The notes: generated by a model from the letters alone, not told the origin. Positions 1-10,451 are shown, counted from the stretch's first letter. The stretch is DNA of 10,451 nt from a virus (IMGVR_UViG_2562617113_000011:1-10451); one strand, 5' to 3'. Translations and numbers: made by a program.

Positions 1-372
1 TTATCGCCGTAACCGCTCCGGCTTCTTCCACTGGTACGTAATTTTTTCTTTCTCCTGGTACATCTGCACGCGGCGACGGTACGACAACATCTCCAGAACT
101 CTGGTGCGTATGTTGCGTATATCCACGCCATTAAGCTCGATACCGTCACGGCGCATCACCTCAGCCATCACACGCGCGTAATTTTCAGCGGTGACTGTAT
201 CCGGCTGCGTGGCCTGTTCGTCAGCCTGCTGGCTGATTCCGGTAATACTGCGGATTATCCCGAGCGCTTCGGTCTCGGTCATGGTCATGGCCTCCATAGT
301 GATGGCGGGTCCTCCTGGTGGGGTGCCCTGCCACGGGGCGGGAGCATCGCGGAAAAAGGCTAGTTTTTGCAT
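1..372 (-). CDS. Hypothetical protein downstream of the small terminase gene (123 aa as drawn; more likely about 93 aa from an internal start at 282)
   Basis: Complete ORF whose stop codon is the first 3 nt of the window. The ATG at 372 has no convincing SD; the in-frame ATG at 282 is preceded by GGAGG with 8-nt spacing. No family recognised; a short QPDTV motif weakly recalls lambda gpFI but is insufficient to call. Confidence 0.45.
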   Translation of the reverse strand: MQKLAFFRDAPAPWQGTPPGGPAITMEAMTMTETEALGIIRSITGISQQADEQATQPDTVTAENYARVMAEVMRRDGIELNGVDIRNIRTRVLEMLSYRRRVQMYQEKEKITYQWKKPERLRR

Positions 373-491
373 TTTTATTCGTCATCACCACCAATGCAAT
401 ATATTGATATGACTTGATGTTTTATTTTTCGGTGTCGATTTCGATTGTTTTTTGTTCATCACTGACGCATAACTCCCACCAGCGCAACGCT

Positions 492-515
492 GAAAGCCAG
501 TCAGTAAACTGGCTT
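492..515 (-). other. Stem-loop (8-bp stem AAGCCAGT/ACTGGCTT, 6-nt loop) just 3' of the small terminase gene; weak U-tract
   Basis: Perfect inverted repeat seen directly in the 162-nt gap between the TerS stop (534) and the next gene. On the minus strand it is followed only by UUUCAG, so it is an attenuator or stabilising hairpin rather than a strong terminator. Confidence 0.3.
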
Positions 516-533
516 CGGTCATTGTGCACTACG

Positions 534-1076
534 TTACTTGTCTTTATCCGGCTGAAACTTATCAGGCACATTTCCGGTAGTTTCCATCAGATAATCGGAC
601 AGCATTCGCGGGATGTTTTCATCAAGTTTTGTGCATGCGTTACAGGCTCTGACAACTTCTTTTTTCAGGCCATCCAGCATGGCGGGGGTCATCTGTGGGA
701 AGCGCCTTTGCATGGTAAGCGGCAGGCTGTCCATGATAGATGAAATCTGACTCGCCAGTTTTGAAAGCGCATATATACAAAATTCCGTACTAATCACGTC
801 GCCGCGTTCGCGCTCGTTTTTAAGCTCCTGCGCCTCCGCCTGCGCTGTCAACAATCTGATCCTGACTCGCAAAAGCTCATCATTATCAATCTCGCCTTTG
901 TCGTCTGTAATCTGGTTAATTGCATTGCTAACCCGATTGTCTATTACGCTGGCAACATCATAAAACGCCTCGCGGCCTTTACGTTCAACGGGAGTCACTC
1001 CCCACTTGTCGAACGCTGTCGCACTTACACGGCAGCTTTGCGCCATGTTTTTTTTGTTCATCAGGTGCGATTTCAT
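534..1076 (-). CDS. Terminase small subunit, lambda Nu1-like (180 aa)
   Basis: The C-terminal two-thirds aligns closely to my recollection of lambda gpNu1 (e.g. AQAEAQELKN, LPLTMQRRFP, LDENIPRMLSDY); the N-terminal DNA-binding region is divergent. Start chosen at the ATG at 1076 (GGGGA SD, 5-nt spacing); alternatives are GTG 1088 and ATG 1061. Confidence 0.8.
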   Translation of the reverse strand: MKSHLMNKKNMAQSCRVSATAFDKWGVTPVERKGREAFYDVASVIDNRVSNAINQITDDKGEIDNDELLRVRIRLLTAQAEAQELKNERERGDVISTEFCIYALSKLASQISSIMDSLPLTMQRRFPQMTPAMLDGLKKEVVRACNACTKLDENIPRMLSDYLMETTGNVPDKFQPDKDK

Positions 1077-1181
1077 CAATATCCCCACTTAAGTAATGTT
1101 TCAGGTTGGTGTATTTGTTTTATCTTTCCCTTTTTATTCATAGAGATAGAGCGAACAACAAAACCACCACCAGCACCCGAA

Positions 1182-1228
1182 AAAGGCTCATAAATAGCGA
1201 AAACCCGCGCGTCTGCCGCCCCGTAACG
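1182..1228 (-). other. Lambda-like cos site (cosN-like 12-mer GGGCGGCAGACG at 1210-1221 on the minus strand, flanked by lambda-identical sequence)
   Basis: The minus strand reads CCGTTACG-GGGCGGCAGACG-CGCGGGTTTTCGCTATTTATGA. As I recall it, lambda reads GTTACG-GGGCGGCGACCT-CGCGGGTTTTCGCTATTTATGA, so the 22 nt after the 12-mer are identical and 5 of 12 overhang positions differ. It lies directly upstream of the Nu1-like gene, as in lambda. Confidence 0.6.
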
Positions 1229-1277
1229 GGTCCATATGCCGGAAAGGACCCGCCAGCCAGAGCGGGCCCTAATTTCA

Positions 1278-1622
1278 TCAACCAATCAACTTATTGCGCC
1301 CTTTCAGGGCATTACGCCTGGCGCGTTCAATCTTGAGGCATAACGCCGCATCAGGTTTTTCGGGGGTGGGAACAAGGCAATAATTTGATGCGCGCGGAAT
1401 GTTGTTAATCCACGCAACAACTTCGCTTAAATACCATGCCTTGCGGCCTTTCGTAACCTGTACGCGTTCGGGGAACTCTCCGCGAGCCTCAAGGTTTAGC
1501 AATGTGCGACGGCTAAGGGTTGTAAGCTCCACTACCTGATCCATATCGACAAGACGCTCGCTTAAGCGCATTTTATCATCGATATCTAATAGCTCTCGTA
1601 GCTGACTATCTCTTTCAATCAT
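1278..1622 (-). CDS. AlpA/excisionase-family HTH DNA-binding protein embedded in the head/packaging operon (114 aa)
   Basis: The central segment LVDMDQVVELTTLSRRTLLNLEARGEFPERVQVTKGRKAWYLSEVVAWI fits the AlpA/Vis pattern (hydrophobic-T-x-LSRsT-x(6)-G-FP ... W ... EV-x-W). ATG at 1622 lies 9 nt after the D-like stop, with GAGG overlapping that stop. Confidence 0.55.
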   Translation of the reverse strand: MIERDSQLRELLDIDDKMRLSERLVDMDQVVELTTLSRRTLLNLEARGEFPERVQVTKGRKAWYLSEVVAWINNIPRASNYCLVPTPEKPDAALCLKIERARRNALKGRNKLIG

Positions 1623-1631
1623 TCTCGTACC

Positions 1632-1973
1632 TCACACACGTGCCAGCGGCTGAACAGAAATACCTGAGCCAACAAACGCAGCAACTTTTGCTGATAGTTG
1701 TGTTACAGACTCAGGCCAGTTCAGAGCATCAACATTTAAGACGCCGGTTTTATAAACCTGAGCCTGCGTTTTTGTCGCTGTATCGATTTGTACAGCGGAA
1801 ACATAAACAGCTTTGCCTGCGCTCGTTCCATCCCATACCACCAGTGCACCAGTTACATCTTCTTGCATCAGTGGCGTAAACGCAGGGATTACCCCTTTAT
1901 TGGCTGAAAATATCCCCAGCGTAGTAACCAGTGCTTCAGTGCCAGCCATGAGTTCAGTGTAATGAGTAGCCAT
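1632..1973 (-). CDS. Head decoration protein, lambda gpD-like (113 aa)
   Basis: Size and motifs match remembered lambda gpD (PAFTPLM, VVWDGT, LNWPE, AFVGSGISV). Sits immediately downstream of the E-like gene (9-nt gap) with an AAGGGGGAG SD. Confidence 0.75.
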   Translation of the reverse strand: MATHYTELMAGTEALVTTLGIFSANKGVIPAFTPLMQEDVTGALVVWDGTSAGKAVYVSAVQIDTATKTQAQVYKTGVLNVDALNWPESVTQLSAKVAAFVGSGISVQPLARV

Positions 1974-1982
1974 TGCTCCCCC

Positions 1983-3023
1983 TTAACCAATGCGAACGGT
2001 AACAAAACGATTGATGCGGGCCGGTATTGGCTGTGGTGCAGAGTGCGTTTGTACGTACTCAATAGCCGGATCACCTGGTACGATGTAATTTTTCGGCGCA
2101 AGTTCGGCTTTAGTAAGCCCCATTCTGATTAACTCAGGATCCTGAATGCCACCGTAGGCAACGATGCCCTGTAATGATGTGTTGCCAAGCACCATCAAAT
2201 CAGGATCAAGGAAATATCTTTCAGTTCCGTCCTCGTCGGTATAACGTCCGCTATATACCACAATAGCAACATCGCCAACGTAACCCTTGAAGCTTACAGA
2301 ATCCCCAAGATTTTTCAGGGCCGTTTCAAGAACGGAATTAGATCCCCGTCGAGTATCAAGGCAATCTTTTACTGCTTTAAAGGCGCGGTATTTTTTCCAT
2401 ACGTTGCGGCCCATTACGATGATATTTGTAGTACCTTCGCTGATTTCTGCGTACTCTTCGATGTCATCGTTTGGATCAAATGTTGATAAATCTCTACCGC
2501 CCCACTCCGTACCGCCGAACTGCGTGATAATATTTTGTGGTTTTATATTCCAGTCCAGTTCATAACGTTCAATTCCATCGCCTTCAATGATATTTTTCCC
2601 CGTTGTAACCGCCTGAACAGCAAGCCACTCAATACGCGCACGAATTGCCTGCGCTTGTCTTACTAACGCTCGCTTTATTTTGAAACTGCGTGATGAATAT
2701 GCATTGAATTGTTCCGGTGATACGCCTGGTTGACGAACGGCTATTTTATTTGGGTCGATACTACTTTTTGGCTTCATATAGCCAGGACGAATTACTTTTG
2801 ATTCGTAGCCTTCATCGCGTGAGACTTTGCTACCAACCATAGGGGAACAAAATGCAGCCATCGGGATGTCTGGATCGTCAATAATATCAAGCGCAATATC
2901 CCGCGTCTCAAATGTAACGACTCGCTTAAAAAACAGGTTTATAAATAAAGAATTAATCTGCCATTGAATATCTTCGGCATTAACAACCTGTATTAACATA
3001 GCTGGTGAATATAAATCACTCAT
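1983..3023 (-). CDS. Major capsid protein, lambda gpE-like (346 aa)
   Basis: Long collinear similarity to remembered lambda gpE (NIITQFGGTEWGGRDLSTFDPNDDIEEYA, FKAVKDCLDTRRGSNSVLETA, GDVAIVVYSGRY, MVLGNT, VPGDPA); 346 aa against 341 aa for gpE; AAGAGG SD 4 nt before the ATG. Confidence 0.85.
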   Translation of the reverse strand: MSDLYSPAMLIQVVNAEDIQWQINSLFINLFFKRVVTFETRDIALDIIDDPDIPMAAFCSPMVGSKVSRDEGYESKVIRPGYMKPKSSIDPNKIAVRQPGVSPEQFNAYSSRSFKIKRALVRQAQAIRARIEWLAVQAVTTGKNIIEGDGIERYELDWNIKPQNIITQFGGTEWGGRDLSTFDPNDDIEEYAEISEGTTNIIVMGRNVWKKYRAFKAVKDCLDTRRGSNSVLETALKNLGDSVSFKGYVGDVAIVVYSGRYTDEDGTERYFLDPDLMVLGNTSLQGIVAYGGIQDPELIRMGLTKAELAPKNYIVPGDPAIEYVQTHSAPQPIPARINRFVTVRIG

Positions 3024-3295: not shown

Positions 3296-3718
3296 TTAAA
3301 ACGGTATGTTATCCCCGTACGGATCATCGTTACCCGCCTGTTGTTTTGCCCTGTTCAGTGCGTCAGTAGCCTGCCCCTGCTGGCCTTTTTTGCCGCCCGG
3401 TCGCACCGTTCTCGCACTGATTACGCTGTCTGCGATAACCTGCCAGCCCTGCCGCGTTTCGCCGTTCTGGCCTGTCCACTGGCTTACCTGCATGTTACCC
3501 GCCACGCTCACCAGTTCGCCTTTGTGGTGTTTTGCCAGTGCGTCGGCCTGTCTGCCAAACGCCAGGACAGATAACCACATCGTCGCCGTTCCGTCATTTG
3601 CCTGGCTGCATGGCAGGGGAACCGCCATACTCGCCATCGCCATTTGTGTCCCTTTGCTGGTGGTCTTTAACTGCGGGTCAGCCACCAGCCGCCCGTAAGC
3701 CGCTATCTGTGCTGTCAT
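3296..3718 (-). CDS. ssb: Single-stranded DNA-binding protein (140 aa)
   Basis: OB-fold SSB pattern (GRLVADPQLK ... WLSVLAFGRQAD ... GELVSVAGNMQVSQWTGQNGETRQ), a Gly/Gln-rich linker and a C-terminal DDPYGDNIPF resembling the canonical SSB acidic tip DDDIPF. ATGA start/stop overlap with the upstream gene. Confidence 0.75.
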   Translation of the reverse strand: MTAQIAAYGRLVADPQLKTTSKGTQMAMASMAVPLPCSQANDGTATMWLSVLAFGRQADALAKHHKGELVSVAGNMQVSQWTGQNGETRQGWQVIADSVISARTVRPGGKKGQQGQATDALNRAKQQAGNDDPYGDNIPF

Positions 3719-3993
3719 GCTGTCTGCTCTCCGGTTTTAACATTGATGGTTGTCACCTGTTCCGCTTCGGCAATCTCCCGTTCTGTCAGCGTGGCAAAGT
3801 TTGCTGCCGCCGTTGTCATGAATGCGCTTATCAGGTCGGGATGTTCCTTCGCGTATCCTTCCCCCGCGTGGCGGTCTATCGTTCTGATTGCCACCTTTAA
3901 AGCGTGCTCTGTCATGTCTAACGCGCGATATTTCGGCTCTGTTCTGTCTCTGCGTTTTTTGAGTGATTTATTAAATCTCCCTGAAGTGTGCAT
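3715..3993 (-). CDS. Hypothetical protein, basic N-terminus (92 aa), translationally coupled to ssb
   Basis: ORF with a GAGGGGG SD upstream of the ATG at 3993; its stop overlaps the ssb start (ATGA). No family recognised. Confidence 0.5.
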   Translation of the reverse strand: MHTSGRFNKSLKKRRDRTEPKYRALDMTEHALKVAIRTIDRHAGEGYAKEHPDLISAFMTTAAANFATLTEREIAEAEQVTTINVKTGEQTA

Positions 3994-4040
3994 ATTTATT
4001 TTTACCCCCTCGTTTAAAAAGTTTTGAGTTGTGCCTCCCC

Positions 4041-4268
4041 TTGTCTACCTTATCTACCTTAGTGGCCCCTATGCCAGTAATGGCGCGGCTTTCAGCGGGG
4101 TAGAGTGCTTTTATCCACTATCTACTCCGTATCTACCTCCCTGTCTGATTCAGGTAAAATCAGGTAGAGAGGGTAGACAGTGGGTAGACTGTAAAAAAAG
4201 GCTGTCTACCTAACTTAATATACTGAATTAAATGTATTTTCCTTTACTCAGGTAGACAGGGTAGACAG
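4041..4268. repeat. Iteron cluster, putative origin of replication: about 9-bp GGTAGACAG/CTGTCTACC repeats in both orientations flanking an AT-rich spacer
   Basis: Direct copies at 4163-4171 (GGTAGAGAG), 4172-4180, 4183-4191 (GGTAGACTG), 4251-4259 and 4260-4268. Inverted copies at 4041-4049 and 4202-4210, with degenerate TCTACC units at 4051-4058, 4119-4127 and 4131-4137. AT-rich stretch at 4211-4250. Lies immediately 3' of the primase gene. Confidence 0.65.
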
Positions 4269-4281
4269 CAATTACAAAAAA

Positions 4282-6036
4282 TTATAAAAACGCGTCGCAC
4301 TCGTCTGTTGTTATTGCGTTAGTCTGCGTTACCCCCTTAACTTTCCGCGTAATATATTCATGTCCATAAACTTTTGCGGCAGGCTTCATAGCCTTGCCAA
4401 AGTCATTTACGTTTAGCGGTTTGCTCCTGCCTGCGTATGCCATAAACGCCAGATAGACGCGGTAAAGGCTGTTCCTGGTCGTGTACTTCACTGAATCACC
4501 ACCGCCCCCCATCATCAGGCCGCGCGCTTCCTCCAGAAAATTCAGGAACTGGCAAAACTCAATAACCGGATCCGTCTGTTGCTTTATTGCCAGTGCTTCA
4601 TCACCGTCACGCTGTTCCAGTAGTAAAGCCCGTGCCTTCTCAGGGTCGGTAAAGTTCGCCAGCAATCGGCGGATAATAACGGGGATTTCAGCCGCAATCT
4701 TTTCCGGTAGCTCCCTGTCTTTTTCGGCATCACTGACGATATTGTCGAAACGGAAAATCACGCGACGACGTGCCACACCTCCGGCCCGTTCGGTGAATAT
4801 CATCGGGTTGTTGTTGGTCGCCAGCACCACCGCCCTGATTACCGCCGTGAAACGCTTTTCATATTTCGGGTTAATTTCCACGGGGTCGCCGCCTGTGATT
4901 TTCTTGATGCCCGTTCCTTCGCCTGTATATTTCGGCTGGTCAGCCAGGACGATAAGACGACTCCCGACAACCTGCGCACGTCCACCAGCATCATCAAGCG
5001 ATGTCATTTCAGCGCTTACCGTGTTCTGTTTCCCTGCCAGAAGGCTGGCTATGTGTGTGAATGTACTTTTACCGCTCCCGCCGTCTCCGGTGGCCTCAAT
5101 AAACATCTGCCAGTCGTACCGGTTCGCCATAATCATGTACAGCGCGGCACATATACGCATCATCTTGCGCGGGTCTTTTCCGGCTGCGTGCTCAAGCCAT
5201 TTATGAAAGTTTGGCGCGTTATCGCGGATGTTTTCCCCTGGTGCTGGTAGCGTGTACTCAATGCCGTTGTGCGTGGTGATCCAGTTCTCCGGCGTGTGCG
5301 GGGAAAATTCCCCCGTTTTCAGGTCAAGCGCACCATTGGCGAACGGCAGCAAATCGCCGGACGGCTCGCCCATTGGTTCGGCAATAACTTTTAACGCTTC
5401 CACGGCGTTATTGATTACGCGCTTGCTGAAAGTGGCCCTGTGCTCTGAATAGATCGCCACCATTTCGCGGCTAAGTTCCATTGTGCTGACCGGACACCAT
5501 ACCCCGCCGCGCCATACGTGAACGATTTCACTTTCAGGATGTACGCAAACGCCATCAAAGCGATCGGCAAGCAGCTGCGCGCGCTCACTGTCCGCCATCT
5601 GCGAAAGTTGCGCCTTTTGCTTTACCGGAAGCTCAATGACCAGACCATCAGAAAGATTCTGGCGCTCACGGGCCAGATATTCGCGCCAGTTCTCCACCTT
5701 CTGACCGTGCATACCGTCAGGGTAAAAATTTGCATCCTGTACGCCTGCCGCCGCCAGCTTCTGACCAATTGCCTTTATCATTACAGGCGCAAGATATCCG
5801 GCCCTGTATATGCGTGCTGATTTTCGGCCTTCCGGCACAATTTGCAGCTTATCCAGTTCGGATAACTGCTGCTCCCCAAGCCACACAGGAGGCTCATTAT
5901 CTCCGGCCATACGCGCATCATGTTCCTGCCATTGTTTCGCGTGTGCCCAGGCATCACTACCCGCAAAAATAATGACTTCTGTTCCTTTGTGTTTTATGCC
6001 GCGTGACTGCTGTTTTACGTTCGGTGCCAGTTTCAT
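4282..6036 (-). CDS. P4-family primase/helicase replication initiator (584 aa; Walker A GDGGSGKST, SF3-type NTPase)
   Basis: P-loop GDGGSGKST and a following hydrophobic Walker-B-like stretch RLIVLADQ; overall resemblance to the helicase/C-terminal part of P4 alpha and PICI pri-rep proteins; N-terminal region possibly toprim-like. ATGA overlap with the upstream gene. Confidence 0.85.
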   Translation of the reverse strand: MKLAPNVKQQSRGIKHKGTEVIIFAGSDAWAHAKQWQEHDARMAGDNEPPVWLGEQQLSELDKLQIVPEGRKSARIYRAGYLAPVMIKAIGQKLAAAGVQDANFYPDGMHGQKVENWREYLARERQNLSDGLVIELPVKQKAQLSQMADSERAQLLADRFDGVCVHPESEIVHVWRGGVWCPVSTMELSREMVAIYSEHRATFSKRVINNAVEALKVIAEPMGEPSGDLLPFANGALDLKTGEFSPHTPENWITTHNGIEYTLPAPGENIRDNAPNFHKWLEHAAGKDPRKMMRICAALYMIMANRYDWQMFIEATGDGGSGKSTFTHIASLLAGKQNTVSAEMTSLDDAGGRAQVVGSRLIVLADQPKYTGEGTGIKKITGGDPVEINPKYEKRFTAVIRAVVLATNNNPMIFTERAGGVARRRVIFRFDNIVSDAEKDRELPEKIAAEIPVIIRRLLANFTDPEKARALLLEQRDGDEALAIKQQTDPVIEFCQFLNFLEEARGLMMGGGGDSVKYTTRNSLYRVYLAFMAYAGRSKPLNVNDFGKAMKPAAKVYGHEYITRKVKGVTQTNAITTDECDAFL

Positions 6037-6572: not shown

Positions 6573-7025
6573 TTAATCCCCGTCCGTCGCTTTTCTTAAA
6601 ATAACCTCTGTCACGAAATCAGCATAATCGGCGGCAATATTCAGTACATCAAGTCCCGTTGATTTATATTCTTTCGTGGAAAGTAAGAAAAAATCCGCTC
6701 TAATAAGTTCTGGCATTGACGAAAGCGCATCAGCCGCATCACCAGGAACGCCGGAAAATTCCTGTTTCAGGGCATTAAAACGATCATCACGCATAACCCC
6801 CCCATTTTCACAATCAGTAATCAGGATGGCTTTAGCCTCATTCAGTGCCATATCAGCACTAAATTGCATAACAGCCAGTGAGTGAGGAACGAAAGCCCCG
6901 GCATATTCTGTTTCGCTGGTGGCGTGCTTATGTGCCCTGTCCGCGATAACAGAAATATCAATCAGCGCGTGCATCAGCGTTTTGATGGCTTCGGCGGCTG
7001 CGTCCTGACGGGTGTTATTGCACAT
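6573..7025 (-). CDS. Hypothetical protein (150 aa)
   Basis: Strong AGGAGG SD 6 nt before the ATG at 7025. The longer 300-aa ORF in the track is an R/P/S-rich upstream extension and was rejected. Start overlaps the stop of the upstream gene by 11 nt. Confidence 0.55.
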   Translation of the reverse strand: MCNNTRQDAAAEAIKTLMHALIDISVIADRAHKHATSETEYAGAFVPHSLAVMQFSADMALNEAKAILITDCENGGVMRDDRFNALKQEFSGVPGDAADALSSMPELIRADFFLLSTKEYKSTGLDVLNIAADYADFVTEVILRKATDGD

Positions 7026-7557
7026 GGCGCACCTCCTGACGAATACGGGCGGCGAATACAGCGACACAACCGGACGGGCAATGGTTACGCGCTTCGCGTT
7101 CCGTCCAGGCGGTGACGTGGATGATTTGGGATTCTGACGCGCCAAAGATGATAAAGCGCCAGATAAAGACAGTGTGAGAATGTATAAGGGTAGGGATAGT
7201 AGCCATGTTGGCAGCCTCCTTTGACAGTGAAGAATTTCCACCGCAGGAAACGCCAATTTCGCTGGCGGTGGACTGAACGGGGTTGGCGTAACCGGCGTCA
7301 AAGGGAACCGGCGCTTCCGAAGAAGCCCCCGCCCAGCCCACCATAACTTTGATGTGAGCGAATGCGGACGATAAAAAAGACGCTGGCGCGTCATATATCG
7401 CCTTTGACATTTCCAAGACGCCAATCCCGGCACCAGATTTTGCTGGTGCGGGTAAATCATAGCCCTGGCTGGCATTGGCGATCAACAGGTTTTTTACATC
7501 GGGTTTATTCAGGTTGTGCGAGTCCCGCCCTTGCGGGTGTGTGGTATGATTTAACAT
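7015..7557 (-). CDS. First gene of the replication operon: Ash-family-like N-terminal region fused in frame to an Icd-like (host cell division inhibitor-like) C-terminal region (180 aa)
   Basis: The N-terminal half carries motifs I associate with P4-like Ash proteins (AKSGAGIGV, MVGWAG, PVPFDAGYANPVQSTASEIGVS). The C-terminal 63 aa (FIWRF ... ESQIIHVTAWTEREARNHC ... AVFAARIRQEV) resembles Icd-like proteins and has its own AAGGAGG SD before an internal ATG at 7206. GAGGT SD before the ATG at 7557. Family assignment is from memory. Confidence 0.5.
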   Translation of the reverse strand: MLNHTTHPQGRDSHNLNKPDVKNLLIANASQGYDLPAPAKSGAGIGVLEMSKAIYDAPASFLSSAFAHIKVMVGWAGASSEAPVPFDAGYANPVQSTASEIGVSCGGNSSLSKEAANMATIPTLIHSHTVFIWRFIIFGASESQIIHVTAWTEREARNHCPSGCVAVFAARIRQEVRHVQ

Positions 7558-7649
7558 AGCTACCTCGATACTTCTGCTATCGTTGGTGGTTAGAAGCCCT
7601 GCGAGTGGTAACGACACTTGCGGGGCTTTGCATTTATGCGCCTTGATAA

Positions 7650-7730
7650 TTTTAAGGTGTGGCCCACTATATGTTTTAGGTGTGGCCCACGTCAAGAGTT
7701 TTATTTGTGCTTTTTCTGTGTATACTGTCC
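7650..7730. promoter_or_regulatory. Divergent promoter/operator region: two 13-bp direct repeats AGGTGTGGCCCAC (7655-7667, 7678-7690) overlapping candidate sigma70 promoters on both strands
   Basis: Minus strand: -35 TTGACG (plus 7690-7695), 18-bp spacer, -10 TATAGT (plus 7666-7671), so both repeats fall in the -35/spacer/-10 region. Plus strand: -10 TATACT (7721-7726) with upstream TGTG, 30 nt before the RHH-like gene. Each repeat contains the dyad GTGG-C-CCAC. Confidence 0.55.
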
Positions 7731-7756
7731 CCCACCAATCCACCAGAGGAATAGAA

Positions 7757-7936
7757 ATGGCAACGGGTACAACAAACGCAAAATCACAAGCTCTAAAGGC
7801 TCGTGTACCACACGAAATAGTAAACGCCATGGAATCAGTGAAAGAATCAGGCGAAAGCACATCACAATTCATCATTACGTCAATGCAAGGCGAGATCAAA
7901 CGCCGCCAGCGGCGCAAGGCCAAAGAGCAGGAGTAA
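7757..7936 (+). CDS. Small DNA-binding-like protein, possibly ribbon-helix-helix (59 aa); candidate repressor acting at the adjacent repeats
   Basis: GAGGAA SD 6 nt before the ATG; the N-terminal segment KSQALKARVPHEIVNAMESV resembles an Arc/CopG-type strand-helix; basic C-terminal tail. Fold is inferred, not computed. Confidence 0.55.
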   Translation: MATGTTNAKSQALKARVPHEIVNAMESVKESGESTSQFIITSMQGEIKRRQRRKAKEQE

Positions 7937-7993
7937 CCATCACCAGCGCTGTGGTGCGGTGAACTGTGGCGCACTGGGTTACAGGTATCTACG

Positions 7994-8191
7994 ATGACTG
8001 ACAAATCATTAAAGAAATTATCCTCATCCAGGAAAAAACAACGCAAAAATGCGGTAAGCGAACAAGAACAGGAGAGATTTGCGCCATGTGCGTTTGCCCT
8101 TGAGAAGTTCTTAAAAGAGTACAGGCGCACAAAAATGGGGTCGCATACCTGGAAAACATCGCGGCATGGCAATGTTAAAGAGCAGGAATAG
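7994..8191 (+). CDS. Hypothetical highly basic small protein (65 aa); coding status uncertain
   Basis: ORF following the RHH-like gene in the same orientation with a weak SD (AGGT, 7-nt spacing); K/R-rich, no motif recognised. A plus-strand terminator follows at 8295-8322. Confidence 0.35.
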   Translation: MTDKSLKKLSSSRKKQRKNAVSEQEQERFAPCAFALEKFLKEYRRTKMGSHTWKTSRHGNVKEQE

Positions 8192-8294
8192 CCCACCAGC
8201 AAGCCAGCACACTGATCACATTGCCCACCAGCCGCAAATGTGGCATTGTTGGCAATGCTCATGCGTTGGGGATAACGTGTAGCTTGTGTCGAAG

Positions 8295-8322
8295 GGCCAC
8301 CGTAGCGGGTGGCCTTTGTTTT
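8295..8322 (+). terminator. Intrinsic terminator for the small plus-strand operon (stem GGCCACC/GGTGGCC, then TTTGTTTT)
   Basis: 7-bp GC stem with a 6-nt loop followed by a T-rich tract on the plus strand only. Confidence 0.55.
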
Positions 8323-8360
8323 GCCTGTTATCCGGCAATTGTGGCGCTTCGCTACACGGT

Positions 8361-8446
8361 TGATATAATCCCACTGCACTGATTCATTTTTTGCGCAGTA
8401 GGTTAATTGTTCGCAAGGGCGCTCCGGCAACGGGGCGCTTTTTGTT
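8361..8446 (+). ncRNA. Candidate small RNA unit: extended -10 promoter (TGaTATAAT, 8361-8369) followed about 50 nt later by a strong intrinsic terminator (8419-8446)
   Basis: Perfect TATAAT preceded by TGn; hairpin GCGCUCCG-GCAA-CGGGGCGC (GNRA-type loop) followed by TTTTTGTT; no ATG-initiated ORF between them. Lies on the opposite strand just past the 3' end of alpA. Confidence 0.3.
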
Positions 8447-8473
8447 ATGTTCATCGCGTTACGCCTCACACCA

Positions 8474-8680
8474 TTACGCAGCCGTTCCGCGCGCTTCTTC
8501 CTCGCGCTCTTTCAGCCAGGCCAGCACTTCATCTTCATACCAGCCAACACGACGCAGACCGATTTTGAAGCCTTTCGGGAATTTTCCTGCGTTGATCATG
8601 TCCTGTAGCGAACTGTCTGCCTTGATGCGCAGAATATTTTTTACTTCCTGACGGGTAAGTATTTTTCTGATTGTTTCCAC
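8474..8680 (-). CDS. alpA: AlpA/Vis-family phage transcriptional regulator / excisionase-like protein (68 aa)
   Basis: HTH pattern LRIKADSSLQDMINAGKFPKGFKIGLRRVGWYEDEVLAWL typical of AlpA; GTG start at 8680 with GAGGT SD 8 nt upstream; position next to the integrase. Confidence 0.8.
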   Translation of the reverse strand: METIRKILTRQEVKNILRIKADSSLQDMINAGKFPKGFKIGLRRVGWYEDEVLAWLKEREEEARGTAA

Positions 8681-9209: not shown

Positions 9210-10451
9210 TTACACGGCACGGATACCCCTTTTACCACTGGCTATGGTCACTCCGGTAGCTGCGGCCTCTACAAATTCCCCCCACCAGCGCATAAGCACC
9301 ACGCGCTTTTCCAGGTAGTTACTTCGGTTATATGCTCGCCTTACCTCGTTCGTGTCCACGTGTGCGAGTGCGGCCTCGATTACGTCCGGCTCGAATCCTT
9401 CCTCGTTCGCTGCTGTACTGAATATGGCGCGTAATCCGTGAGACACCAGCACACCAGCGTATCCCATCCGGCGCAATGCAGCGTTAGCGGTCTGGCTGTT
9501 CATTGGCAGCATTGGATTTTTAAGGCTGGGAAAAACATGTTCCCTGTGTGCGCTGATTGGCTTCATTGTTTCCAGTACAGCCATCGCCTGACCGCAAAGA
9601 GGGATCACATGGTCACGGCGCATCTTCATGCGTCCGGCTGGAATCGTCCATGTTTCGGCATCGAGATCTATTTCTTCCCAGCGTGCGGCGGCTGCTTCGG
9701 CTGGGCGTGCTACGGTCAGCAGTTGCCACTCGATTAGCAATCTGGTTTGCCGTTCTATGCTGGCGACCGATAAATCGTGCATTAGCTGCGGTAGCTGTTC
9801 CGGTCGGATGGTTGGCATATGCTTTTTAGTGGGGGAAGGGAATGCCTTGCGGACGTTCGCGGCGGTGTTGATGTCAATCAGCCCACTGTTGGCAGCAAAA
9901 TCCATCACTTCATTGATGCGTTGTAAAACGCGTTTCAGAGTTTCCAGGTTGCCGCGTGCTTTAATGGGTGTGAGTATCTCAACAAAGCGGCGAGCGGTGA
10001 GGGTATCTATTGGCGTGTTTCCGATGTACGGGAATACGTATTTTTCCAGGGATCGCCAGATATCCTTAATCGTGTTGTAAGCCAGATTCTGGCCTTTTTT
10101 CATCTCGTACCAGTCCAAGGCAACTTTTTCGAACGTGTTGCCCTTTTTCCTGCTCTCTGCTTCACGTTTCCGGCGTTCGTAGTCCTGTGGGTCAGTTCCC
10201 TTTGCTATGAGTGACCTGTATTCATTCCGTCGCTCTCTGGCATCAGACAGGGAAACATCATTTAGCGATCCAAGGCTGATAATAGTCCGTTTTTTATCTG
10301 CCGGGCGGTAGTACGTAAAACGCCAGATTTTTGATCCGGAGGGCTTCACCAGAAGAAATAATCCTCCGCCATCCTGCAGGGTATATTCCTTTTCCCCTGG
10401 TCGTGCGTTTTTGATCTCCGTAATAGTTAGTGGGGTGGTTTTTCGTGCCAT
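9210..10451 (-). CDS. int: P4-type tyrosine integrase (site-specific recombinase, 413 aa)
   Basis: N-terminus MARKTTPLTITEIKNARPGEKEYTLQDGGGLFLLVKPSGSKIWRFTYY is typical of P4/CP4-57-type integrases; C-terminal catalytic region with HGLR and the RRAYNRSNY tyrosine motif. The start codon is the last 3 nt of the window. Confidence 0.9.
   Translation of the reverse strand: MARKTTPLTITEIKNARPGEKEYTLQDGGGLFLLVKPSGSKIWRFTYYRPADKKRTIISLGSLNDVSLSDARERRNEYRSLIAKGTDPQDYERRKREAESRKKGNTFEKVALDWYEMKKGQNLAYNTIKDIWRSLEKYVFPYIGNTPIDTLTARRFVEILTPIKARGNLETLKRVLQRINEVMDFAANSGLIDINTAANVRKAFPSPTKKHMPTIRPEQLPQLMHDLSVASIERQTRLLIEWQLLTVARPAEAAAARWEEIDLDAETWTIPAGRMKMRRDHVIPLCGQAMAVLETMKPISAHREHVFPSLKNPMLPMNSQTANAALRRMGYAGVLVSHGLRAIFSTAANEEGFEPDVIEAALAHVDTNEVRRAYNRSNYLEKRVVLMRWWGEFVEAAATGVTIASGKRGIRAV

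Follow-up and report, generated by a model that had tools for sequence, protein, structure and literature searches.

A lambda-type packaging module with its own small terminase and no large terminase gene in a probable Escherichia coli phage-inducible chromosomal island

Introduction

The viral stretch IMGVR_UViG_2562617113_000011:1-10451, termed here the window over its whole length of 10,451 nt, carries at positions 1-3023 a module of lambda-like capsid and packaging genes, and the question raised by this locus is whether such a module could serve an autonomous element or belongs to a satellite that depends on a helper phage for the rest of the virion. The first-pass annotation had proposed that portal, large terminase (TerL), scaffold and protease are lacking within the window, and that the element would be an obligate parasite of the corresponding helper functions if the flank lacked them too. 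The analysis below indicates that 1-3023 is very probably the late packaging and capsid module of a classical Gram-negative phage-inducible chromosomal island (PICI) of the EcCICFT073 type, which would need a cos-type lambdoid helper. Helper dependence for TerL, portal and scaffold is a defining property of this known class and the finding is in itself ordinary; the residual interest lies in a modular system of small terminase (TerS) and cosB and in the capsid homologues.

Results and discussion

Gene content of the packaging module

The credible genes of the window lie on the minus strand only. The module comprises five of them, in transcriptional order:

1983-3023, minus strand: gpE-like HK97-fold major capsid protein (MCP), 346 aa, full length (Pfam Phage_cap_E 3.4e-40; PHROG 29 5e-88)
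1632-1973, minus strand: gpD-like head decoration protein (Dec), 113 aa (Pfam HDPD 7.4e-16; PHROG 49 5e-26)
1278-1622, minus strand: second AlpA-family helix-turn-helix (HTH) protein, 114 aa, between the decoration gene and cos (Pfam Phage_AlpA 8.7e-8; PHROG 2790 1.3e-37)
534-1076 (longer call to 1088), minus strand: Nu1-family TerS, 180 aa (Pfam Phage_Nu1 5.5e-23; PHROG 57 6.3e-52, full length)
1-282, minus strand: last open reading frame (ORF), termed orfX, 93 aa, satellite-restricted (phrog_1561 2e-51)

The virion-related proteins recognisable in the module are thus three, namely the gpE-like capsid protein, the gpD-like decoration protein and the Nu1-family TerS. When the main ORFs, meaning every one of at least 100 aa on the coding strand, were scanned against PHROG and Pfam, they revealed no further morphogenetic family and no TerL, portal, connector, tail or lysis gene, the remaining ORFs matching in PHROG only integrase, AlpA, primase, single-stranded DNA-binding protein (SSB), regulators and families without assigned function. 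Similarly, tblastn of lambda A, W, B, C, Nu3, FI and FII and of their N15 or 21-like equivalents against the window returned nothing at E<=1 beyond 15-aa noise, and an NCBIfam scan of the five module proteins matched no family. The absence of portal, TerL, scaffold and protease from the module, as first proposed, is therefore borne out by the family scans and by tblastn.

The MCP displays 42% identity to lambda E and 55% to c1499 of EcCICFT073, and the closest MCP among 50,697 phage records is again only 42% identical; the protein belongs to a satellite-specific lineage. Dec has 54% identity with EcCICFT073 c1500 and 41% with lambda D. Pairwise dN/dS values across MCP, Dec, TerS and orfX range from 0.07 to 0.24, those of both MCP and Dec against their relatives lying between 0.07 and 0.13 and those of TerS between 0.14 and 0.17. 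This conservation of MCP and Dec argues for a function, although the literature searched offered none for the gpE and gpD homologues of PICIs and described no characterised TerS-type E. coli PICI. The HTH gene keeps its position in satellites of Enterobacter/Citrobacter, Kosakonia and Superficieibacter (69-72% identity), while its slot in EcCICFT073 is taken by an unrelated 137-aa ORF (c1501). The HTH protein matches AlpA in the PDB (8c3t, 4.5e-10) and may act in late regulation or as an accessory factor at cos. Capsid modules also change hands in this group: in E. coli UTAK-5, TK3896 and W12-1, islands that are elsewhere 95-98% identical to the window have the gpE-like gene replaced by a 'ClpP-like prohead protease/major capsid protein fusion', so the capsid module swaps among otherwise similar satellites.

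Ends of the island

The window begins exactly at the stop codon of its last ORF, and the flank was therefore read in relatives, above all in the copy of E. coli EC43, which is 99.8% identical over 1-3023. In EC43, the last ORF is followed on its left by about 530 bp of non-coding island DNA with no credible gene, then by a partial copy of the tRNA-Pro 3' end (attL-like TTGGTCGCACGAGAG) and by yejO, narP and ccmH-A. At the right end an intact tRNA-Pro (attR) lies past the integrase gene and is followed by yejM. A distance of 10,873 bp separates the two att copies, and core genes flank the element at either end, which leaves neither room nor sequence for gpA, gpB, gpC or Nu3; no A, W, B, C, Nu3, FI or FII homologue was found in the EC43 island extended by about 4 kb on the left and less than 1 kb on the right. 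The inspection of the upstream flank recommended with the original proposal thus led, in EC43, from the module through an att repeat into core genes with no TerL or portal on the way, and this flank, free of gpA, gpB, gpC and Nu3, supports the view of the island as a parasite of helper terminase, portal and scaffold. The module of five genes also closes islands just ahead of core genes at three more sites, smrA, clpS and phoQ. With its ends taken from the EC43 homologue, the island appears to be a complete E. coli PICI of ~10.9 kb seated at a tRNA-Pro gene.

The two copies differ in two segments. Window 3933-5614 (the C-terminal two-thirds of the primase gene and the region downstream) and 7060-7503 (C4/isrK) are replaced relative to EC43, and the identity outside these segments is 93-99.8%, a pattern of mosaic exchange of replication and immunity modules. 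EC43 further carries a 26-nt direct repeat, CGTATAGCT(T/A)AACGTGTAGCTAAAAA, just inside both island ends (L001:14543-14568 and 25197-25222); GTAGCTA-like motifs occur near int, and the end repeats may be arm-type sites of the integrase.

A small terminase without its large partner

The island TerS is 47% identical to N15 gp1, the highest value for TerS among the phage records, and 36% identical to lambda Nu1 in full-length alignment. Its N-terminal winged HTH (wHTH) is N15-like (MNKKNMAQSCRVSATAFDKWGVTPVERKGREAFYDV against LNKSDMASSLGISVQAFDKWGVQPVEKRGREVFFDV in N15). The C-terminal region is lambda/N15-like with a short extension, nearer to lambda and N15 than to 21-like TerS, and keeps the Nu1 pattern FP..LD.LK...A.N....LDE.IP..L..Y, which in a longer rendering ends in LS.Y. 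By homology, the protein would consist of a Nu1-type wHTH, a central oligomerisation region and a C-terminal TerL-binding region. The gene lies 134 nt downstream of a cos site, with no overlapping TerL (gpA) gene adjacent.

The meaning of this arrangement emerges from the relatives. An earlier contig scan with the single TerS protein gave no match, and a scan with a TerS alignment, with one genome per species, recovered 33 loci. In all 31 relatives of at most 47% identity, a gpA-family TerL gene (50-87% identical to lambda A) starts at the end of terS. In contrast, both relatives of at least 54% identity, from Kosakonia and Superficieibacter, have no TerL, and their TerS is preceded by MCP (79%), Dec (73-77%) and HTH (69-71%) of the window type. 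Since every phage-type relative has TerL, its absence beside TerS is a satellite signature. The context of two TerS proteins from databases agrees: the TerS labelled P0110 (58% identical; Enterobacteriaceae) occurs in int-alpA-...-E-D-AlpA-TerS satellites inside the E gene of lambdoid prophages, which then continue with E', FI, FII, Z, U, V, G, T and H, and P0101 is found in an island at the EcCICFT073 site whose surroundings match the satellite pattern. The TerS lineage is satellite-only, and TerS without TerL is a stable satellite design. The module genes are old, selected and satellite-specific, and are not the debris of a decaying prophage. Loci L007-L009 and L016 hold such helper-embedded E-D-AlpA-cos-TerS satellites in the major capsid gene of lambdoid prophages, with a cargo of FRG and DUF3892 behind terS in place of orfX.

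A clean and recent recombinant is provided by the terS of island L010, which lies at the EcCICFT073 site (L010:7775-8600 compared with L006:39705-40495 and window 520-1260). Its cosB and the first ~270 nt of terS match the 21-like CFT073 prophage, which is of the natural helper type of EcCICFT073, at 98-100% identity, and the 3' half of its terS is 93-100% identical to the window terS. Such an exchange requires co-residence with lambdoid phages. In addition, this recombinant reveals TerS as modular, its DNA-binding and C-terminal halves behaving as separable units.

The cos site and its candidate cosB

A complete lambda-type cos (cos1), absent from the first-pass annotation, lies directly upstream of terS:

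1239-1251, minus strand: cosQ of cos1, GGGTCCTTTCCGG, identical to lambda and N15 (alignment and pattern search)
1204-1226, minus strand: cosN of cos1, with a predicted 12-nt cohesive end GGGCGGCAGACG at 1210-1221
1154-1174, minus strand: candidate cosB R3-equivalent, GCTGGTGGTGGTTTTGTTGTT, bp +48 to +68 from the start of the cohesive end

Conservation with lambda and N15 extends over cosQ, its distance to cosN, cosN itself and the I2-side sequence, but not over cosB. The cohesive end reads GGGCGGCAGACG in the island, GGGCGGCGACCT in lambda and GGGCGGCGTCCG in N15, and its flanks, TTACG on one side and CGCGGGTTTTCGCTATTTATGA on the other, are kept. Beyond about +34, cos1 diverges from both phages, as expected for a private, island-specific cosB. 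The candidate R3 lies at the same distance from cosN as R3 of lambda and N15.

When islands and phages are compared, the stretch from +48 to +68 varies with the type of the TerS DNA-binding domain. The N15-type domain pairs with a (GGT)nTTTTGTTGTT-like cosB in the window, in L013-L015 and in L008, as in N15 itself (GAGGTTGTTGTT), and in island L010 a domain of 21 type is matched by a cosB of 21 type resembling the one in the CFT073 prophage. Such co-variation speaks, indirectly, for a probable recognition of the island cosB by the island TerS. The candidate cosB of TerS-type islands contains (GGT)3-4; equally far from cosN, that of EcCICFT073, an Rpp-type island, has (ACC)3-4 (L006:2600-2625). 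As (ACC)3-4 is the reverse complement of (GGT)3-4, this may be a coincidence or an inverted binding site.

Proposed helper type and packaging route

As nothing else morphogenetic is encoded, the module cannot make or fill a capsid alone. The absence of other head genes implies that a gpA-type TerL, portal, protease and scaffold, head-completion, tail and lysis functions would come from a cos-type lambdoid helper. A helper of lambdoid type is supported, at the level of sequence, by the lambda-type cosQ and cosN, by the relatives embedded in lambdoid prophages and by the L010 recombinant.

In the route envisaged, induction of the helper would lead to excision and replication of the island; for the homologous EcCICFT073, excision and replication, induction and high-frequency transfer by helpers have been demonstrated (PMC6092414). 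The island TerS would then bind the island-specific cosB beside the conserved cosN and cosQ and recruit the helper TerL through its Nu1-like C-terminal region. According to the work of Frackman 1985 and Wu 1988 as relayed in PMC6739421, and to PMC9026076, TerL is bound by the C-terminus of Nu1, and gpA in turn contacts TerS through its N-terminal part, so that the C-terminal partner-binding region of gpA invoked by the first-pass annotation for a search of matching helpers was placed at the wrong end of the protein. Finally, TerL would nick the island cosN and pack island concatemers into proheads built by the helper, where four copies of 10.87 kb would give 43.5 kb, a lambda-sized headful. 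Multimer packaging has been reported for EcCICFT073 and is consistent with a four-copy headful (PMC6092414; 10.1101/2022.07.18.500453), and EcCICFT073 is mobilised by lambda and phi80 via cos and needs the helper terminase (PMC6092414, PMC6739421).

Alternative readings

Several observations weigh against this account. The cos1 cohesive end differs from that of lambda at 4 of 12 positions, clustered in the N2 half of cosN, while nearly all related islands keep the lambda end GGGCGGCGACCT; the GGGCGGCAGACG variant is very rare, for in the records listed from 5,426 complete E. coli genomes EC43 alone matched at 100% identity over its full length, a comparison that leaves aside seven other records of at least 99% identity. 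This copy of cos1 might thus be poorly cleaved. The flank was taken from EC43 and not from the window's own genome, and since EC43 differs in part of the primase and immunity RNA regions, the flank evidence is evidence by close homology. The C-terminal half of TerS is at best 42-52% identical to TerS in the phage records, too weak for a compatible helper to be named, and its pairing with a helper TerL is a prediction from sequence. Finally, the capsid and decoration homologues of EcCICFT073 are dispensable for interference (PMC6092414), and its capsid genes are reported in 10.1101/2022.07.18.500453 to be dispensable for transfer.

The role of the capsid proteins gives rise to a different reading, in which the island is a partly capsid-forming satellite whose gpE- and gpD-like proteins would use the helper portal and scaffold to form heads that are specific to the satellite and possibly smaller. 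The MCP and Dec are full length, under strong purifying selection and conserved across genera along with terS, they form a satellite-only lineage with at most 42% identity to any phage MCP, and MCP homologues redirect capsid size in SaPIbov5 and are suspected to do so in PmCI172 (PMC6092414). EcCICFT073, on the other hand, is reported to be packaged in full-size capsids, deletion of c1499 or c1500 did not relieve interference (PMC6092414), and the sequence reveals nothing on capsid size, which leaves this reading rather unlikely. It is also unlikely, somewhat more so, that the island TerS acts in the manner of Rpp, forming a hetero-oligomer with the helper TerS in which both are needed and helper packaging is simultaneously blocked. 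TerS does hold the exact position of Rpp downstream of cos1, it shares homology with the Nu1 oligomerisation region in its central part, Rpp has been proposed to derive from TerS (PMC6739421), and the L010 recombinant, which joins a helper-type N-terminal half to the C-terminal half found here, implies that TerS halves are interchangeable with those of helper TerS. Nevertheless, the protein is full length and carries the Nu1 C-terminal motif, while Rpp proteins have about 144-153 aa, consist of a wHTH and a dimerisation helix and have no TerL-binding tail (PMC9026076). RppA aligns with the island TerS at 17% identity, and PDB sequence searches with TerS and the HTH protein found no similarity to RppC, their sole match being AlpA 8c3t for the HTH protein.

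Two further explanations concern the origin of the element. All three virion genes belong to lambda families, as would be expected of a decayed lambdoid prophage that has simply lost its head genes, but the order E-D-HTH-cos-terS departs from the lambda order cos-Nu1-A-W-B-C-D-E, the compact int/alpA/primase architecture of 10-11 kb recurs at four or more sites and in several genera, MCP, Dec, TerS and orfX are under purifying selection and no pseudogene debris was found; a remnant is therefore extremely improbable. Hardly better placed is a P4-like satellite exploiting a P2-type helper. The integrase and AlpA are of P4 type, the primase is D5/alpha-like, an antisense RNA of the C4 family is present and relatives carry an Icd-like gene; against this, Pfam and PHROG scans brought up no homologue of sid, psu or delta, the cos is of lambda type and has a 12-nt end where P2/P4 have a 19-nt cos, TerS, MCP and Dec fall in lambda families, and relatives are embedded in lambdoid prophages.

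A bolder and unlikely extension would make the lineage a half-way house between classical and capsid-forming PICIs, with its own MCP and Dec remodelling heads, a modular TerS redirecting TerL and functional cos variants. If this were true, MCP and Dec, as a deep satellite-only clade, would build or remodel heads on the helper portal and scaffold; the DNA-binding half of TerS would be swapped together with cosB (N15-type here, 21-type in the recombinant) while the satellite C-terminal half is kept; and the private end GGGCGGCAGACG and the inverted cos2-like site described below would be satellite-specific packaging parts and not signs of decay.

The terS-orfX gap and the last ORF

The region between terS and the left end of the window contains two further elements:

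493-516, minus strand: hairpin with a 10-bp stem and a 4-nt loop, no U tract, beginning 18 nt past the terS stop
about 307-353, plus strand: inverted, degenerate cos2-like element (alignment with the EcCICFT073 and L010 spacers)

The first-pass annotation had described the last gene as an ORF of unknown function at 1-372. The ORF exists and phrog_1561 has no assigned function, although its start is almost certainly the ATG at 282 (93 aa) and not that at 372, because PGAP gives 282 nt in EC43, phrog_1561 spans residues 31-123 of the longer call and nearly all of the best 120 of 930 close homologues have 93 aa. The product is 74% identical to the last ORF of the EcCICFT073 island, of which it is a homologue, and its dN/dS is about 0.2. 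An exhaustive HMMER search found only 36 clusters among 1.84 billion representatives and no informative distant relative, and the AlphaFold2 model is of low confidence (pLDDT 63, pTM 0.42), with three helices.

With the start at 282, the non-coding gap between terS and orfX amounts to about 251 nt (161 nt with the ATG at 372), in place of the 162 nt given before. The hairpin that had been noted in this gap is real, and its perfect stem, so close behind the terS stop, is unchanged in EC43 and in islands L010-12, L014 and L015, as might be expected of a transcriptional attenuator limiting orfX expression. A terminator scan of the gap, however, called nothing at the hairpin, which lacks a U tract, the fold of the whole gap exceeds that of shuffled versions by a modest margin only (z = -2.0; 4 of 200 shuffles did as well), and L013, EcCICFT073 and the satellites embedded in prophages have no such hairpin while retaining orfX or the module. 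As all copies are identical, they offer no covariation. Attenuation of the operon at the gap, part of the original proposal, was rejected as unsupported on the basis of the missing terminator and the z-score, and is considered improbable.

The segment just upstream of orfX is, by alignment with EcCICFT073 and L010, the reverse complement of a cos site. It comprises a cosQ-like GGGTCCT at 307-313 and the succession CCACG, GGGCGGGAGCAT and CGCGG, the 12-mer lying at 336-347. A pattern search for a second canonical cos with up to 2 mismatches matched cos1 only. L010, L014 and L015 carry the variant 12-mer unchanged, and its sharing by three islands suggests constraint and not decay. In EcCICFT073, cos2 has the same position and orientation and is functional experimentally (PMC6092414).

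The remainder of the island

Upstream of the module, the island carries the following features:

9210-10451, minus strand: tyrosine integrase (PHROG 1 6.9e-73), adjoining tRNA-Pro in the EC43 copy
8474-8680, minus strand: canonical alpA regulator beside int (PHROG 66 / 2790)
7373-7449, minus strand: isrK (Rfam 70.5 bits)
7261-7348, minus strand: C4 antisense RNA (Rfam 82 bits)
4282-6036, minus strand: primase/D5-type replicase (Pfam D5_N, DUF5906, Pox_D5; PHROG 864 1.6e-173)
3296-3718, minus strand: SSB (PHROG scan)

All five PICI core parts are present in canonical order (integrase, alpA regulator, primase-replicase, capsid, small terminase). DUF4222 and small ORFs sit between the immunity-like region and the primase. 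C4 and isrK, side by side, resemble the RNA immunity region of P4/P1. The ORFs 6573-7475 and 7015-8469, which overlap C4/isrK, are mostly spurious, their PHROG matches being confined to the C-terminal parts.

Comparison with known satellites

The island is an uncharacterised, new Gram-negative PICI of the TerS-bearing cos type and not of the Rpp type. The PICI core defined in PMC10085698 (int, alpA, pri-rep, capsid and terS, with no other structural genes) is matched throughout. Against the PICIs of SatelliteFinder (de Sousa et al. 2023, PMC10085698), whose median length is 9.5 kb compared with about 10.9 kb here, it is a complete 'type A'-like instance, as assigned from gene content, with no essential difference. 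Its likeness to P4 is limited to the C4 RNA and the primase type.

The pac-type pathogenicity islands of Staphylococcus aureus (SaPI1/SaPIbov1), as presented in PMC6739421, follow the same logic, in that their own TerS and the helper TerL redirect packaging. In contrast, SaPI TerS is unrelated in sequence, acts at pac sites and serves headful packaging, while the window island is cos-type with a Nu1-family TerS. According to the same source, SaPIs add Ppi, which blocks the helper TerS; no Ppi or Rpp homologue was found in the window island. Capsid-forming PICIs such as EcCIEDL933 (10.1101/2022.09.08.507074, PMC10085698) share the int-alpA-primase front, and capsid and terS are present in both. 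They differ in carrying TerL, portal, protease and head-tail connectors and in stealing tails only; neither the window nor the EC43 island with its flanks yielded any of these genes. Helper-embedded satellites (for example 11capE; 10.1101/2022.07.18.500453) include E-D-AlpA-cos-TerS relatives (MCP 80%, TerS 58%) inside the lambdoid E gene, whereas the window island is chromosomal, lies at a tRNA gene and has another integrase, and 11capE is described without terS (10.1101/2022.07.18.500453).

The closest parallel is EcCICFT073, the model cos-type PICI of Gram-negative bacteria, from E. coli CFT073 (Fillol-Salom 2018, PMC6092414; 2019, PMC6739421), which shares the whole plan of int-alpA-primase-...-capsid-decoration-X-cos1-packaging specificity gene-inverted cos2-93-aa ORF, followed by chromosome. 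In CFT073 this corresponds to capsid c1499, decoration c1500, the 137-aa ORF, cos1, RppA (144 aa), inverted cos2, the 93-aa ORF and phoQ. Both islands combine a lambda-type cosQ and cosN with an island-specific cosB. They differ in that c1501 is replaced here by the AlpA-like HTH, cos2 is degenerate, the cos1 cohesive end departs from lambda at 4 positions and integration is at tRNA-Pro and not on the phoQ side. Above all, the packaging-specificity slot occupied by RppA in EcCICFT073 holds a full-length Nu1-family TerS in the window island. The strongly conserved capsid and decoration homologues pose a question shared by all Gram-negative PICIs. A cos-type Gram-negative PICI lineage with TerS exactly where the studied model has Rpp, although of modest specialist value, supports the published idea that Rpp evolved from TerS, and the TerS-type and Rpp-type islands form a natural pair in which packaging specificity, set by the DNA-binding domain and cosB, can be compared with TerL recruitment by the C-terminal half.

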